Shown here piece after piece: positions 1-52,235 of a DNA stretch of 60,585 nt; the first letter of the stretch is position 1; each line of letters opens with the position of its first letter. Both the position numbers and the translations under genes were made by a program. The stretch covers positions 1 to 60,585 of the forward strand of contig JBKCMS010000066.1 in the NCBI GenBank assembly GCA_046300175.1, written 5' to 3'. The DNA comes from Pseudomonadota bacterium (lineage in GTDB: Bacteria > Bdellovibrionota_C > UBA2361 > OMII01). Below the pieces are notes generated by a model, which was not told the DNA's origin, made no database searches, and was given only the letters and a program-made list of their open reading frames with translations.

Positions 1-149
1 CTATAGTGACGTGCAAAAGTCCGTGCCAGTAAAACTGGCAAGGCTTTTGCTGGACATCACTATAGGTTGTTGTTTTGATTCGCATCCGCGAATCGATAGC
101 GTTATCCAAAACTCGGGATTTCGCTACGGACTTTTGGAGAACGCTATAG
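1..149 (+). mobile_element. 149-bp palindromic MITE-like repeat, family A copy 1
   Basis: Near-identical copies at 1195-1343, 40789-40937 and 51137-51285. Imperfect terminal inverted repeats CTATAG..CAAAAGTCCGT / ACGGACTTTTG..CTATAG and three internal hairpins. Confidence 0.85.
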
Positions 150-1194: not shown

Positions 1195-1343
1195 CTATAG
1201 TGACGTGCAAAAGTCAGTGCCAGTAAAACTGGCAAGGCTTTTGCTGGACATCACTATAGGTTGTTGTTTTGATTCGCATCCGCGAATCGATAGCGTTCTC
1301 CAGAACTCGGGATTTCGCTACGGACTTTTGGAGAACGCTATAG
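1195..1343 (+). mobile_element. 149-bp palindromic MITE-like repeat, family A copy 2
   Basis: Differs from copy 1 at only 3 positions, no indels. Confidence 0.85.
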
Positions 1344-1442: not shown

Positions 1443-3536
1443 ATGAGCTCGAAGCCACCACAATCTCCCAAAAATTTAAACGCAACTCTATCGGTCGATT
1501 CATTGGTAGGGGGGCTAGTGCATTACGACGACGAGGGGCAAGTCGTGCTCGGGGTCGTAACAGGACTCAAGAAGGATAAAATCATAATACTGACAGAGCG
1601 TGGCCGCGAGCTTGAGCTGATACGGGCGCGGCTACATGTTTTGCCGGGTAAACTAACGGGTGTCTTTGCTTCAACAAACGCACGAGTTGAAAGGCTAAAA
1701 GAATTAGCCAAAGAGATAGAGAATGCCGCTACAACGGTCAACATCATCGAGCTGTGGGAGTTTGTGCACGAGGAGGGGCGCCAGTTCACTGTATCTGAGC
1801 TCAGCACTATGTACCTGGGGTCTGACGATCTTATGAGTCATGCAGCGCTCCGGGTGGCCATGATCCGGGAGCGTATTCACTTCAAGCGAGAGCGCGATAC
1901 TTTTGAGCCAAGAACGCAGCGTGTAGTTGAAGATCTTCGTCGTGCAGAGGATGCAAAAGCCCAGAAGAAGGCGGCCCGCGATCGGTGTCTTGCGTTTCTG
2001 GAGCTTAAAACTTCGGACAATGAAGCGGCAATACCTCCCGATCTAAGAGATTCCTTTCGGTTGATTGAGGAAGTTGCGGCATCAATAGTTCACACGGACC
2101 CGGCAAGACAGAAAGAAGCTCGTGATTTCGTGCATCTTTGTGGGGAGCGTCTAAAGCTACCTGAGAGTATGCCGATAGAGAAGCAAGCCTTTGAGGTGCT
2201 GTGTAAGACCGGCGTATTCAACGAACACACAAACCTTTCGCTCATCCGACACGATATACCACAAGAGCACAATGCTGAAGTGGAAGCTGAGGCAGCAGGG
2301 CAACATGCTCCTTGTGAGCTTGAAGATTTCTCAGTCCATGAAAGGCAATTCCGGCGCGATCTGACATCTGCATTTACGTTTACCATCGATGATATATCGA
2401 CTCAGGATATGGATGATGCGCTCTCTTTGGAGCGCACCCCTGATGGATACGTTTTGGGAATTCATATAACTGACGTGACTATGGCAGTTATGCCAGGGTC
2501 ACGGATAGATCGTGCAGCCAAGAGGCGCGCTACATCGCTGTACTGTGCCGACCGCACCATTAACATGCTCCCATCTCATTTGGCAGAAGGTGTCTGCAGT
2601 CTTAAAGTTGGTGTTGTGCGTCCTTGCCTCTCGGTGTTGGTCAAGTTAAGTGAGTCTCTAGAGATATGCTCAAGCGAGGTGTGTGGTTCTTTTGTGCGGG
2701 TGGGGTGTCGGTATACTTATGATCAGGTAGATGACCTCCTCGAAACAGGGGACTCTACTTTGTTACTGTTGCACGATATCGCGGCAGCATGTGAGGAAGG
2801 CCGAATTCGTAACGGAGCTATGCGCGTTCAGAAGCGCGAAGTAGTGCCTTTCTACGAAGACGGTCAGGTGCGCCTGCAGGAGATAGAGGAGGATAGTCCA
2901 GCCAGATTACTGGTGTCGGAGATGATGGTGCTCGCTAATACAGTCATGGCAAAATTCGCAGCAGCCAATCGAATTCCGGTCCTATTCCGAGGCCAAGAGC
3001 GTCCTGATGATCGTCACGGTGATGCAAATAATCGGGAGCAGGCTCCCGAGGGGCCAGCAAAGGATTTCTCAGCACGTACTAGACTCAAGAAATCATCGGT
3101 ATCATTCGAGCCGGTTCACCACGCAGGACTGGGAGTCGATGCATATATTCAAGCCACTTCTCCGATCCGGCGTTATATGGATCTATGTCATCAACGACAG
3201 CTTCTCTCTTTTTTAAAGGGTGGAGGGCCGTGGATCGCTCCCGGTGAGTTTGAGTCGGTGGCGGCCGAGGTGGAGCTGCCGCTTCAGGAAGCAAATCTTG
3301 CTAGTCGAGAGACGAAGCGGTATTGGCTTCTTCGCTATCTTGAGCAGAGAGAGCGTAATAAGCCGATCGAAGGAACGGTGGTGCGTGTGGACCTAAAGAC
3401 GCCCCTTGTTGAACTAGACGAGGTCTACATTACTGTGCTTGTGCGTTTGCAACAACGTGCTGTGCTAGGCCAGCGAGTAACTCTACGGATCAGTGCAGTC
3501 GATGCTCATGCCGATTATGTAAGGCTAGCACCTTAG
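1443..3536 (+). CDS. RNB-domain exoribonuclease (RNase II/RNase R family)
   Basis: Catalytic motif TIDDISTQDMDDALS, GIHITDV, RATSLY, ATSPIRRYMDL, C-terminal S1-like region. Confidence 0.92.
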   Translation: MSSKPPQSPKNLNATLSVDSLVGGLVHYDDEGQVVLGVVTGLKKDKIIILTERGRELELIRARLHVLPGKLTGVFASTNARVERLKELAKEIENAATTVNIIELWEFVHEEGRQFTVSELSTMYLGSDDLMSHAALRVAMIRERIHFKRERDTFEPRTQRVVEDLRRAEDAKAQKKAARDRCLAFLELKTSDNEAAIPPDLRDSFRLIEEVAASIVHTDPARQKEARDFVHLCGERLKLPESMPIEKQAFEVLCKTGVFNEHTNLSLIRHDIPQEHNAEVEAEAAGQHAPCELEDFSVHERQFRRDLTSAFTFTIDDISTQDMDDALSLERTPDGYVLGIHITDVTMAVMPGSRIDRAAKRRATSLYCADRTINMLPSHLAEGVCSLKVGVVRPCLSVLVKLSESLEICSSEVCGSFVRVGCRYTYDQVDDLLETGDSTLLLLHDIAAACEEGRIRNGAMRVQKREVVPFYEDGQVRLQEIEEDSPARLLVSEMMVLANTVMAKFAAANRIPVLFRGQERPDDRHGDANNREQAPEGPAKDFSARTRLKKSSVSFEPVHHAGLGVDAYIQATSPIRRYMDLCHQRQLLSFLKGGGPWIAPGEFESVAAEVELPLQEANLASRETKRYWLLRYLEQRERNKPIEGTVVRVDLKTPLVELDEVYITVLVRLQQRAVLGQRVTLRISAVDAHADYVRLAP

Positions 3537-3559
3537 AGGCTTGGTTGTTCTAGCTCGCA

Positions 3560-3675
3560 TAAACCCTGCGCGAGTGATTTTTGAAAAAAATCACTCGCAA
3601 TAGCAGGGCGAGCGCAATCTTGGCCCATGAAGATCAAGGGAACAGCCAAGTTGCGTCGTAGAAGACAAAAAACTC
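3560..3675 (+). repeat. 116-bp structured repeat, family B long copy 1
   Basis: Starts TAAACCC with two hairpins; inverted copy at 7660-7775. Confidence 0.85.
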
Positions 3676-3695
3676 TAGCTGTAGAAAGAGACTAT

Positions 3696-3896
3696 CTAGT
3701 TGCTGATAAGCGTGGGACCAGTGATGGCTGAGTAGGTTTTTAACTTAGCAGGAACTTGAAAGCACTTGAGCAAGAGCTCCGGCTGGAGCGCTATGCGAGC
3801 TTCTTGAGACAGGATTAAGTGCATATTGTTGCTCGATGCAGGTAAGTCATCAGAGAGCATCGCGGAGTACCTCTTTTTGAGCGGCAAGACCGTCAC
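3696..3896 (-). CDS. small hypothetical protein
   Basis: 66-aa ORF directly downstream of and co-oriented with 3903-4094; no recognisable motif. Confidence 0.3.
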   Translation of the reverse strand: MTVLPLKKRYSAMLSDDLPASSNNMHLILSQEARIALQPELLLKCFQVPAKLKTYSAITGPTLISN

Positions 3897-3902
3897 TATA
3901 GC

Positions 3903-7493: not shown

Positions 7494-7515
7494 GTGGTTC
7501 AACCTTCCAGTATAA

Positions 7516-7564
7516 TAAACCCTGCGCGAGTGATTTTTGAAAAAAATCACTTGCGCAGGGTTTG
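7516..7564. repeat. 49-bp palindrome, family B short form
   Basis: TAAACCCTGCGCGAGTGATTTT..AAAATCACTTGCGCAGGGTTT; 5' part identical to the copy starting at 3560. Confidence 0.85.
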
Positions 7565-18518: not shown

Positions 18519-19628
18519 ATGCGTACAGTCATTCTCTATAACTCTTCTTGGTATGTCTTTCTGCTTAGACAGAATCTAATTAGGTCGCTGCAATCGGCCG
18601 GACACACCGTAACCGTTATTGCGCCGGAAGATCGATACACTGAGCGTGTTAAGCGTCTGGGTGTTAATTTCGTTCCGATCGCGATGCACGGTAGTGGCAG
18701 CTCTCCGATTGAGGAGGCAGTGACTATAGCAGATGTATACCGGGCGCTCCGAAAGGTGCGAGCTGATGTTGTTCTTTCATTTACGGTGAAATGCAACCTC
18801 TACGCAGGATTGTGTCGTAGGATGCTTGACTTTAGACACGTTGCTAATGTGTCTGGACTTGGGGATATATTTAATACAGGGCCGGCAGTTCGTAGAGGGG
18901 TTTATCTGCTCTATCGGGTTGCATTAGCGCGGACACACTTAATCTTTTTTCAAAACGTAGAAGACCAGGAACGCCTGTGTGCGAGTGGGGCAGTTGATAG
19001 GAATCGCACGCGTGTTATCCCTGGCTCAGGGGTTGATCTGGAAAGATTTATGCCAGCTCAAAGATCGCACCGGCGACAGCGCGCGTTTCTTATGTTTGGT
19101 AGATTACTACCACAGAAGGGCTTTGACAGTTTCATCGAAGCTGCTCGCGAGCTGCGCCACAGATTCGAAGATCGAGTTGCCTTCTGGGTCCTGGGCGCAG
19201 TAGATCAATCACGCAACGAGTCACTTAGGCTGCTGCAGCGGATTAATGAGGCTCATGCGGATGGTATCATCCGTTACCTCGATTCAACTGATGATCCGCT
19301 GCCTTTTATTCGTGAAGCAGATGTAGTGGTGTTACCATCCACTTACAATGAGGGGGTTCCTCGTTCTCTCCTTGAGGCACTGGCATGCGGCAAGCCGGTC
19401 GTAACAACTGATTGGAAGGGTTGCCGGGATACTGTAGAGCATGAGGGTAATGGACTGCTCGTGAGACCAAATGATACAGCATCCCTGATTGATGCTCTCG
19501 GCTCCCTTGCAACGTGTGATATCGGTATGCTTGAGCGCTTAGGTCGTCGAAGTAGACACGTTGCAGAACAGCGCTTTGATGAGCGCATAGTACTAAACGC
19601 CTACCTAGAGTCTTTATCTCCGTGCTAA
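18519..19628 (+). CDS. glycosyltransferase family 4
   Basis: FFQNVED, PGSGVDL, GRLLPQKG, EGVPRSLLEA, GCRDTV. Confidence 0.92.
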   Translation: MRTVILYNSSWYVFLLRQNLIRSLQSAGHTVTVIAPEDRYTERVKRLGVNFVPIAMHGSGSSPIEEAVTIADVYRALRKVRADVVLSFTVKCNLYAGLCRRMLDFRHVANVSGLGDIFNTGPAVRRGVYLLYRVALARTHLIFFQNVEDQERLCASGAVDRNRTRVIPGSGVDLERFMPAQRSHRRQRAFLMFGRLLPQKGFDSFIEAARELRHRFEDRVAFWVLGAVDQSRNESLRLLQRINEAHADGIIRYLDSTDDPLPFIREADVVVLPSTYNEGVPRSLLEALACGKPVVTTDWKGCRDTVEHEGNGLLVRPNDTASLIDALGSLATCDIGMLERLGRRSRHVAEQRFDERIVLNAYLESLSPC

Positions 19629-19674
19629 ACCCAGAGCGAGTGAATTCTGATTAAAATCACTCGCGCAGGGTTTA
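19626..19674. repeat. 49-bp palindrome, family B short form
   Basis: TAAACCCAGAGCGAGTGA..TCACTCGCGCAGGGTTTA; its TAA is the stop codon of the glycosyltransferase; lies between convergent genes. Confidence 0.8.
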
Positions 19675-40788: not shown

Positions 40789-40937
40789 TTATATTGATGT
40801 GCAAAAGTCCGTGCCAGTAAAACTGGCAAGGCTTTTGCGTTACATCACTAGAAGTTGTTGTTTTGATTCGCATCCGCGAATCGATAGCGTTCCCCAAAAG
40901 CCCGGATTTCGCTACGGACTTCTGGAGAACGCTATAA
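40789..40937 (+). mobile_element. 149-bp palindromic MITE-like repeat, family A copy 3
   Basis: Ungapped alignment to copy 1; flanks t|TATA...TATA|a. Confidence 0.85.
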
Positions 40938-51052: not shown

Positions 51053-51127
51053 TGCCCGGTAGCCAAGTGGTAAGGCAGCGGATTTTGATTCCGCCATACG
51101 CAGGTTCGACCCCTGCCCGGGCAACCA
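51053..51127 (+). tRNA. tRNA-Gln (anticodon TTG)
   Basis: Acceptor stem TGCCCGG/CCGGGCA (U1-A72), anticodon arm GCGGA-TTTTGAT-TCCGC, GGTTCGAC, encoded CCA; conserved ispE-tRNA-Gln-prs context. Confidence 0.96.
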
Positions 51128-51136
51128 CTTCCAAAA

Positions 51137-51285
51137 CCATAGCGATGTGCAAAATGGTGGGCCAGTAAAACTGGCAAGACGTTTGCTGTAAATCTCTGTG
51201 GAGTATTGTTTTGATGCGCATCCGCGAATCAATAGCGTTTTCCAAGAGCCAGGATTTCGCTACGGACTTTTGGAAAACGCTATAG
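51137..51285 (+). mobile_element. 149-bp palindromic MITE-like repeat, family A copy 4 (most diverged)
   Basis: Ungapped alignment to copy 1; starts 10 bp after the tRNA CCA and abuts the prs ribosome-binding site. Confidence 0.82.
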
Positions 51286-51293
51286 GAGTTCCA

Positions 51294-52235
51294 GTGACTA
51301 GACCTCTTCTTGTGTTCTCTGGTAGATCCAATCCGGCATTCTCCAAAGCTGTTTGTGATACATTGTCGATTCCTTTAGGAACGATGGACTCAACGCAGTT
51401 TGCTGATGGGGAGCTGTCGGTAGAGATCGGTGACAATGTGCGTGGTGGCGACGTGTTCGTAATTCAGAGCACCTGTACGCCGGCCAACGACAGATTAATG
51501 GAGCTGTTAATCATAGTTGACGCGCTCAAGCGATCATCGGCAGGGCGTATTACCGCCGCTATCCCTTATTTTGGATATGCGCGCCAAGATCGCAAGGTCA
51601 AGCCAAGAGTTCCAATCACCGCCAAGCTAGTAGCTGACATGATTACGACAGCCGGAGCTGATCGCGTCTTGACGATGGATCTGCACGCTGGGCAGCTGAT
51701 GGGATTTTTCAATATACCAGTGGACAATCTATTCGCCTTGCCGGTGTTGATGCCATTTCTAATAGGTAAATATGGCACGGAGGGAGTTACTCTAGTCGCC
51801 CCTGATGTAGGGGGTGTAGAGCGCGCACGCTTGTTCGCTACCCGCATGGGTAACGCTCCAATTGCAGTGATCGACAAACGCCGATCGGGCCCCAACATGG
51901 TTGCCTCAATGAACGTAGTCGGCGACGTAGAGGGGCAGGTGTGTCTGATAGTGGATGATATGGTGGACACCGGCGGGACCTTAATTAAGGCGGCCGACAC
52001 CCTATTGGAAAAAGGGGCTAAGAGCGTTGCAGCTTGCTGTGTACACGCAGTGTTATCTGGCGAAGCTCGTAACAGGCTCAACAACAGCAGTATCTCGGAA
52101 GTCATCGTCACCGATACGATACCCCATGTAGGGGATTTAGGCCCAAAGATATCGGTGCTTTCGGTGGCGTCTCTTTTTGCCGAGGCTATCCGTAGAATCC
52201 ACTCTGACGATTCTATCAGTAGTCTTTTCAGGTAA
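51294..52235 (+). CDS. prs: ribose-phosphate pyrophosphokinase
   Basis: FADGE, PYFGYARQDRK, DLHAGQ, PDVGG, VDDMVDTGGT; GTG at 51294 after AGGAG. Confidence 0.96.
   Translation: MTRPLLVFSGRSNPAFSKAVCDTLSIPLGTMDSTQFADGELSVEIGDNVRGGDVFVIQSTCTPANDRLMELLIIVDALKRSSAGRITAAIPYFGYARQDRKVKPRVPITAKLVADMITTAGADRVLTMDLHAGQLMGFFNIPVDNLFALPVLMPFLIGKYGTEGVTLVAPDVGGVERARLFATRMGNAPIAVIDKRRSGPNMVASMNVVGDVEGQVCLIVDDMVDTGGTLIKAADTLLEKGAKSVAACCVHAVLSGEARNRLNNSSISEVIVTDTIPHVGDLGPKISVLSVASLFAEAIRRIHSDDSISSLFR

Follow-up and report, generated by a model that had tools for sequence, protein, structure and literature searches.

A TA-flanked 143-bp repeat, very probably a MITE of the IS630/Tc1-mariner type, in an uncultured freshwater Bdellovibrionota genome

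What is the 149-bp sequence that opens a contig of an uncultured freshwater Bdellovibrionota genome and recurs three more times along it, and by what means has it been copied? The stretch of DNA analysed here, referred to as the window, is that whole contig (60,585 nucleotides), C66 of a 3.36-Mb, 212-contig assembly with a G+C content of 50.7%; other contigs of this genome (G000) are likewise given as C and a number. The sequence, termed family A, is interpreted here as selfish DNA whose copy number has risen recently in this genome, chiefly between genes. The family is new although elements of its kind are well known, and it is very probably a non-autonomous DNA transposon (MITE) of the IS630/Tc1-mariner type.

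Copies in the window and in the genome

A find-repeats search of the window returned a single family with four copies of 149 nt, all on the + strand, which lie among the following features:

Copy 1, 1..149, + strand: element proper at 4-146, TA at 2-3 and 147-148; 98% identical to copy 2.
OMP decarboxylase gene, 167-1090 (PF00215, E 3.8e-26): start codon 18 nt after the end of copy 1.
Copy 2, 1195..1343, + strand: the reference copy, between the OMP decarboxylase gene and an RNase II/R-like gene.
RNase II/R-like gene, 1443-3536 (PF00773 RNB, E 8e-73).
Copy 3, 40789..40937, + strand: inserted within another repeat.
tRNA-Gln, 51053-51127: neighbour of copy 4.
Copy 4, 51137..51285, + strand: member of an older subfamily with a T-A pair at 104-139; its left TA reads CA.
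Ribose-phosphate pyrophosphokinase gene, 51297-52235: neighbour of copy 4.

Identity to copy 1 is 100, 98, 90 and 83% for copies 1 to 4 respectively, a MAFFT alignment of the four has no internal gap, and BLAST E-values as low as 1e-73 exclude chance similarity. The original prediction of four equal-length, co-oriented copies free of indels therefore stands. Since the contig begins with copy 1 itself, nothing is seen of the left flank of this copy. The shared strand of the four copies is a coincidence, as copies have no preferred orientation towards neighbouring genes (22 with both neighbours in the same direction, 15 with both opposite and 41 mixed) and show no strand bias, whether measured against GC skew (Fisher p 0.36) or against gene strand (p 0.76).

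BLASTN of copy 2 against its own assembly gave 274 matches, 129 of which were at least 140 nt long. Among these 129 full-length matches 12 were at least 98% identical and 60 were 96-98% identical, with the remainder ranging down to 75%. When merged, the matches form 249 loci covering 32,410 bp (0.96% of the assembly), so the family is not limited to four copies at conserved positions. Of the 424 contig ends, 79 lie inside a family A match; the real number of copies must therefore exceed 249, and family A is one of the main causes of breaks in this assembly. The midpoint of 34 of 198 copies falls inside a crudely called ORF.

The distribution of family A within the genus is patchy, 15 of 34 other genomes having a match to the element part of the query. 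The 16 genomes examined from other families of the order lacked it except for one 29-nt match (E 4e-4). An exact 25-nt core pattern was found in at least 43 stretches of public MAG records labelled Bdellovibrionota or Bdellovibrionales, and also in two MAGs labelled only 'Pseudomonadota bacterium' and 'Bacterium'. No match was obtained in the viral contig collection or in the plasmid collection. No Rfam family was matched, the best hit (E 0.015, 23 bits against a gathering score of 86) being one of several chance-level miRNA matches, and a full-text literature search on Bdellovibrio and miniature inverted-repeats turned up no description of such an element. The searches of Rfam, plasmids and literature thus agree with the proposal that the element had not been described before.

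The element had also been predicted to be recently active. What speaks for this is that 72 of the 129 full-length matches are at least 96% identical, and on this ground the family may still be moving. The metagenome contigs lend no further support: contigs of four public runs (X2, X8, X9 and X11) all enter copies 1 and 2 from unique DNA, and none contains a joint that skips an element. As metagenome contigs break at repeats, the missing empty allele says little.

Borders, ends and the TA target

The borders of the element could be set from 93 ungapped copies with both flanks available, in which positions 2-148 are conserved and the sequence further out is unrelated. Position 1 is C in 73 of the 93, and position 149 is G in 36, A in 31, T in 18 and C in 8. 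Positions 1 and 149 are therefore flank and not element, and the element proper comprises the 143 bp (positions 4-146) between two TAs. The repeat unit predicted originally is thus real but its length of 149 bp is not that of the mobile part, which is 143 bp, TAGTGAC...GAACGCTA, plus a duplicated TA. The two ends are imperfect inverted repeats of each other, as had been noted: of the 16 bases next to the TA on its inner side, 11 are identical between left and right, and a common block, CAAAAGTCCGT, comes after them. In copy 2 the parts are arranged as follows:

Left TA, 1196..1197: one copy of the duplicated target.
Left terminal inverted repeat, 1198..1221, + strand: element positions 4-27, TAGTGAC...
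Right terminal inverted repeat, 1317..1340, - strand: positions 123-146, reading inward TAGCGTTCTCCAAAAGTCCGT...
Right TA, 1341..1342.
Hairpin 1, 1195..1259, + strand: positions 1-65.
Hairpin 2, 1270..1289, + strand: positions 76-95.
Hairpin 3, 1290..1341, + strand: positions 96-147.

Five of the six reading frames of copy 2 contain stops; the sixth, frame 2 of the + strand (window 1195-1343), is open throughout its 49 codons, which is far too short for a transposase. Family A is thus small (143 bp), present in high copy (249 loci) and without a transposase gene, as is usual for a MITE.

Evidence for TA duplication comes from empty sites. Between species of the genus, divergence is too great for orthologous intergenic sites to be aligned, the neighbouring OMP decarboxylase gene being only 67-71% identical, and the sites compared are accordingly paralogues. 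Both flanks of every copy were blasted separately and places were sought where the flanks adjoin. This identified seven family A copies inside other repeat families that also have uninterrupted paralogues. Three of the seven comparisons are clean and show the general change N-TA-N to N-TA-[143 bp]-TA-N. The filled site at C179:422-570 reads G-TA-[143 bp]-TA-G, and of its dozens of paralogues five were inspected, four reading GATC-G-TA-G-TAGCAGG and one (C183) G-CA-G. At C209:22225 the empty site is C-TA-C in two paralogues and at C14:19476 it is C-TA-G in one. Two further sites, C189:25394 and C80:2985, need a TA variant of the host repeat, since all host paralogues read CTCA and the insert-bearing copy has TA on both sides; these fit an element that requires TA and found it in a variant host copy. 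The site of copy 3 is approximate (its empty paralogues read C-TA-T at C130:10295-10406 and C-TC-A at C185:17945-18057), and the comparison at C105:11671 differs by three extra bases. TA is present on both sides in 64 of 81 non-array copies.

As the empty sites read N-TA-N, the insert consists of 143 bp plus a second TA, and a flanking C belongs to the target. The predicted TA duplication is therefore directly confirmed by paralogous empty sites. Two other models were considered and rejected on these sites: a 4-bp TATA duplication, suggested by the asymmetric flanks and by arrays with a 143-bp period, and insertion 3' of CTATA, with no target duplication, of a 143-bp unit whose last bases are CTATA. 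For IS630/Tc1-mariner elements, insertion into TA alone, duplication of that TA and cut-and-paste movement are established behaviour (PMC2170065).

The narrower target CTAG that had been suggested is not general; outside arrays it accounts for 20 of 81 sites, the others including CTAA (23), CTAT (12) and CTAC (7). Where the target is asymmetric, the left end lies beside the C in 42 cases and away from it in 9 (binomial p 3.4e-6), a bias seen in each class (CTAA 23 against TTAG 5, CTAT 12 against ATAG 3, CTAC 7 against GTAG 1). In other genomes C is at the left flank in 10 of 12 distinct copies, from an alignment read by eye.

Two of the other repeat families of this genome were noted as carriers of family A. 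An abundant repeat of about 130 bp, GAATTCAAAAATCGATTTTTG...GGCGATCGTAGTAGCAGG..., with examples at C80:18470-18604 and C28:78-211 and dozens more, hosts one insertion. A partly tandem family (period about 183 bp, central palindrome GTGTATCCACTGAGATACAC; e.g. C54:1487-1671, C14:21441-21766 and C104:32428-32794) carries two inserted copies.

Hairpins, arrays and half elements

The minimum-free-energy fold of copy 2 consists of three hairpins (1-65, 76-95 and 96-147), the same three as originally predicted. Its energy is -71.2 kcal/mol, compared with -36.7 +/- 3.8 in 200 shuffles (z -9.0), and the opposite strand folds equally well (z -10.9). Hairpin 1 is the left end folded onto its own inverted second copy and hairpin 3 is an inverted copy of the right end folded onto the right end. 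Both ends thus pair with inverted copies of themselves inside the element, which gives it four end-like arms, of pattern TAG(T/C)G...CAAAAG, and three hairpins. A flanking C lengthens hairpin 1 by one pair, which results in a perfect CTATAG...CTATAG palindrome. GANTC sites in hairpin 2 were considered as a methylation signal, an idea left without support since GANTC is not depleted in the genome (observed/expected 0.97-1.01).

Family A also occurs in tandem arrays. Sixteen head-to-tail junctions were seen at 15 loci; every one has the same register, units follow each other at exactly 143 bp and no TA separates them. The units share CTATAG, and on the outside the majority of arrays are bordered by single TAs. 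If new units inserted into a flanking TA, the period should be 145 and not 143; if they inserted into the terminal TA of the element itself, a surplus TA should remain on the outer side, and only one array (C53) has it. Repeated TA insertion does not predict these arrays, and they count against the MITE interpretation. A possible explanation is slipped-strand duplication, with the TATA(G) sequences that TA duplication would create at both ends serving as short direct repeats.

Hairpin 1 is found alone at 11 loci and hairpin 3 alone at three. Some of these half elements are bordered by TA and lie in unrelated sequence; others resemble full copies that have been truncated. Other variants include an 80-bp internal deletion derivative with TA borders at C87:267-339, in which positions 1-51 are joined to 119-148, and a form with a 16-nt internal duplication of positions 119-134 (C12:2571-2731, C194:15567-15714 and C195:1-147).

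A further possible explanation for the data is that two foldback 'nano-MITEs', each mobile in its own right, make up family A, namely hairpin 1 (59 bp) and hairpin 3 (51 bp), both of which have TAG...CTA ends and lie between TAs, and that the hairpin form perhaps matters for insertion or retention. This is suggested by the half units, the compensatory changes in the stems (see below), the left-end bias towards C and the head-to-tail joints without TA. We consider it unlikely, but if it were true a Tc1/IS630-type transposition reaction would sense a hairpin or cruciform.

Relatives of the ends and candidate movers

Three intact IS630-family elements could be delimited in the genus. All are TA-flanked and all start and end with TAG/CTA, like family A. 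The closest in its ends is L111, a 1200-bp element (L111:1301-2500) on contig C62 of the congener G021, intact and TA-flanked in a CTAG site, which encodes a 335-amino-acid protein with HTH domains plus DDE_3. G021 holds two further copies of it, with stop codons. The L111 ends, TAGTGTTTTTCAAAAAG... and TAGCGTTTTTCAAAAAG..., share 11 and 10 of 16 bases with the left end of family A and 12 and 13 of 16 with the right end, and L111 and family A have the same difference between left and right at base 4, T versus C. The two other IS630-family elements share only 7-8 of 16. This resemblance is in keeping with the IS630 derivation originally proposed, and terminal similarity would place family A among the derivatives of the L111-type group of IS630-family elements. 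The likeness fades after about 16 terminal bases, so L111 is a relative of the parent and not the parent itself.

We propose that a DDE transposase supplied in trans, probably of the IS630 family, would bind the imperfect terminal inverted repeats of family A, excise the element and paste it into a TA dinucleotide, which would thereby become duplicated. A full-length cognate IS630-family element would be expected to carry the ends TA + TAGTGAYGTGCAAAAGTCCGT. A search for an IS630/Tc1-mariner transposase with matching terminal repeats, as originally suggested, found none in 35 draft genomes of the genus. DDE_3 was detected in five of the 35 and was absent from G006, G008 and G022, which have many family A copies. 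In the genome of the window all nine DDE_3 matches lie in a different, degenerate family of about 590 bp with ends TAAACCCTGCGCGAGTGA, and in a tblastn search with three IS630-family transposases that of L111 found nothing. Searching the 35 genomes for the left end followed by non-MITE sequence yielded only two degenerate copies, both in this genome; among solitary family A ends in the same genome the best was a truncated copy upstream of a peroxiredoxin-like gene. In metagenome contigs the end pattern had no match and no relative of the L111 transposase locus was confirmed. As draft assemblies break at repeats and lose multicopy insertion sequences, a missing transposase is weak evidence and does not contradict the model.

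The family of about 590 bp is itself TA-flanked, with ends TAAACCCTGCGCGAGTGA...GGGTTTA, and occurs at 3559-3900, 7515-7554 and 19625-19664 of the window, at C50:6000-6600 and at C22:34830-35420. It encodes the last ~65 codons of an IS630-type DDE_3 transposase and, as only these are left, looks like an internally deleted insertion sequence. At several loci it abuts family A at shared TAs.

Another possibility is that family A is a TA-duplicating MITE moved by a DDE transposase outside IS630/Tc1-mariner, or by one that is now gone, in which case the copies would be fossils. The lack of a cognate transposase in the 35 genomes would fit this, as would the presence of copies 1 and 2, and no empty allele, in contigs of the four metagenome runs. 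It is nevertheless decidedly improbable, given that the terminal bases and TA flanks match those of IS630-family elements in the same genus and that the identity among full-length matches (at least 98% for 12 and 96-98% for 60 of the 129) argues for recent spread.

A different class of enzyme was also considered. This genome encodes an unusually large family of proteins of about 320 amino acids with an N-terminal HUH/Y1 (RAYT-like) domain and a C-terminal extension of about 190 amino acids. The best match of this family is to REP-associated tyrosine transposase, below the cut-off, and it also matches Y1_Tnp. There are at least nine full-length paralogues plus fragments at contig ends, including the following genes:

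C165:14020-15018, C177:373-1350, C144:2-925 and C8:11932-12900: Y1 genes.
C166:14205-15161, C87:34802-35725, C67:802-1764 and C58:10854-11777: Y1 genes.

Short tandem direct repeats precede the C165-type genes (C165:13687-13868) and lie upstream of gene fragments at C152, C130, C2 and C121; they include units ending GGTACGGGGCTACTTTTCAAG and a 93-bp duplication at C165, and are possibly the ends of an insertion-sequence-like unit. A RAYT-like Y1 (HUH) transposase of this kind could recognise hairpins in a single-strand transposon (REPIN or IS200/IS605-type) and insert it 3' of CTATA without duplication. The strong hairpins at both element ends, the asymmetric flanks (C at position 1, variable position 149) and the arrays with a period of exactly 143 bp are features such a transposon might have, and the paralogues would provide the enzyme. 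REPIN/RAYT systems are recognised by the lack of a target duplication together with a co-occurring RAYT gene, and IS200/IS605-type elements by a fixed tetra- or pentanucleotide target, no duplication and a strand bias; family A displays neither combination. Its empty sites read N-TA-N and not CTATA-N, the insert adds 145 bp including the second TA, and there is no strand bias. Of the 35 genomes of the genus, 33 have matches to the Y1 family, as many as 20 in a single genome, irrespective of the repeat; G006, the genome richest in candidate copies, has none. Nor does family A sequence flank the Y1 genes. We therefore regard movement by a Y1 enzyme as very improbable.

The element had further been predicted to be structured at the RNA or single-stranded DNA level. 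The hairpins are real and stable, but variation in the stems mostly breaks pairs. The 54 stem pairs were scored in 155 distinct copies, 121 from the genome of the window and 34 from relatives, giving 8370 cells:

Consensus pair: 7419
Broken pair: 405
One-sided wobble (A-C or G-T): 452
Other one-sided change keeping the pair: 17
Double pair-preserving change: 67
Gap: 10

Double changes are concentrated at pairs 11-55 (14 copies) and 104-139 (22 of the 155 copies). Pair 104-139 is T-A in 19 of the 155 and this is the majority form among the 34 copies of relatives; the compensatory change from TTCTCC/GGAGAA to TTTTCC/GGAAAA noticed originally in copy 4 is thus real and marks a subfamily. The overall pattern resembles that of copies decaying from a small number of masters, and there are slight signs that stem pairing is preserved in the masters themselves; it does not speak for a function as RNA or single-stranded DNA. 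Mean column conservation is highest in hairpin 2 (0.966, compared with 0.933 and 0.936 for the ends), a figure taken from the window's own genome, since the copies of relatives were mostly retrieved with an exact pattern from the hairpin 2 segment itself. No terminator-like or promoter-like excess over shuffles was found in the element.

It is likewise highly unlikely that family A serves the host as a structured non-coding RNA or cis-regulatory module (terminator, RNA stabiliser or protein-binding site) for which its copies are retained, mobility being secondary: the very stable fold on both strands, the double substitutions that define subfamilies, a hairpin 2 at least as conserved as the ends and the closeness of copies to genes would suit such a role, but broken pairs and one-sided wobbles far outnumber double changes, orientation relative to neighbouring genes shows no preference, no Rfam family or excess of terminators or promoters was found, and positions are not conserved between species, the hundreds of copies at variable positions and the patchy occurrence in the genus showing that this is not a conserved cis-regulatory RNA.

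Family A, read as a MITE of the IS630/Tc1-mariner type, can be compared with known systems by its properties, and on these it appears closest to the RUP and Correia elements. RUP of pneumococcus is described as 107 bp, non-coding, intergenic and present in about 100 copies, inserting at TA, with ends that resemble an IS630-family insertion sequence; IS630-Spn1 is its proposed mover and it is often found within other mobile elements (PMC2229807). Family A likewise inserts at TA, shares terminal bases with an IS630-family element and has seven copies inside other repeat families. It differs from RUP in being longer, in its foldback ends and three hairpins, in its 143-bp arrays and in its host phylum, and no cognate insertion sequence was found in the same genome. 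Correia (NEMIS) elements of Neisseria, according to the same source, are 100-155 bp long with terminal inverted repeats of about 24 bp and hundreds of copies, have TA termini with target duplication and give transcripts that fold into long stem-loops (PMC2229807). The difference here is that one long stem is formed from both ends, in place of the three separate hairpins of family A. ISY100 and the IS630 family, within the Tc1/mariner superfamily, are reported to have a TA target, a 2-bp TA duplication and short terminal inverted repeats (PMC2170065). Target and duplication are shared by family A, and L111 provides a member with closely similar terminal bases, whereas family A is without a transposase gene and its interior is unrelated to that of L111 beyond the ~16 terminal bases.

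Family A adds a TA-inserting MITE to a phylum for which a full-text search on Bdellovibrio and miniature inverted-repeats brought up no such description. Two of its features lie outside the textbook picture of Tc1/IS630 transposition, namely the one-sided preference for a flanking C and the end-to-end arrays without an intervening TA. The family is of practical value for annotation and assembly in this uncultured freshwater Bdellovibrionota lineage, where it makes up about 1% of the assembly. Its copies lie within 20-100 nt of housekeeping genes, and the family could serve to mark strain history.
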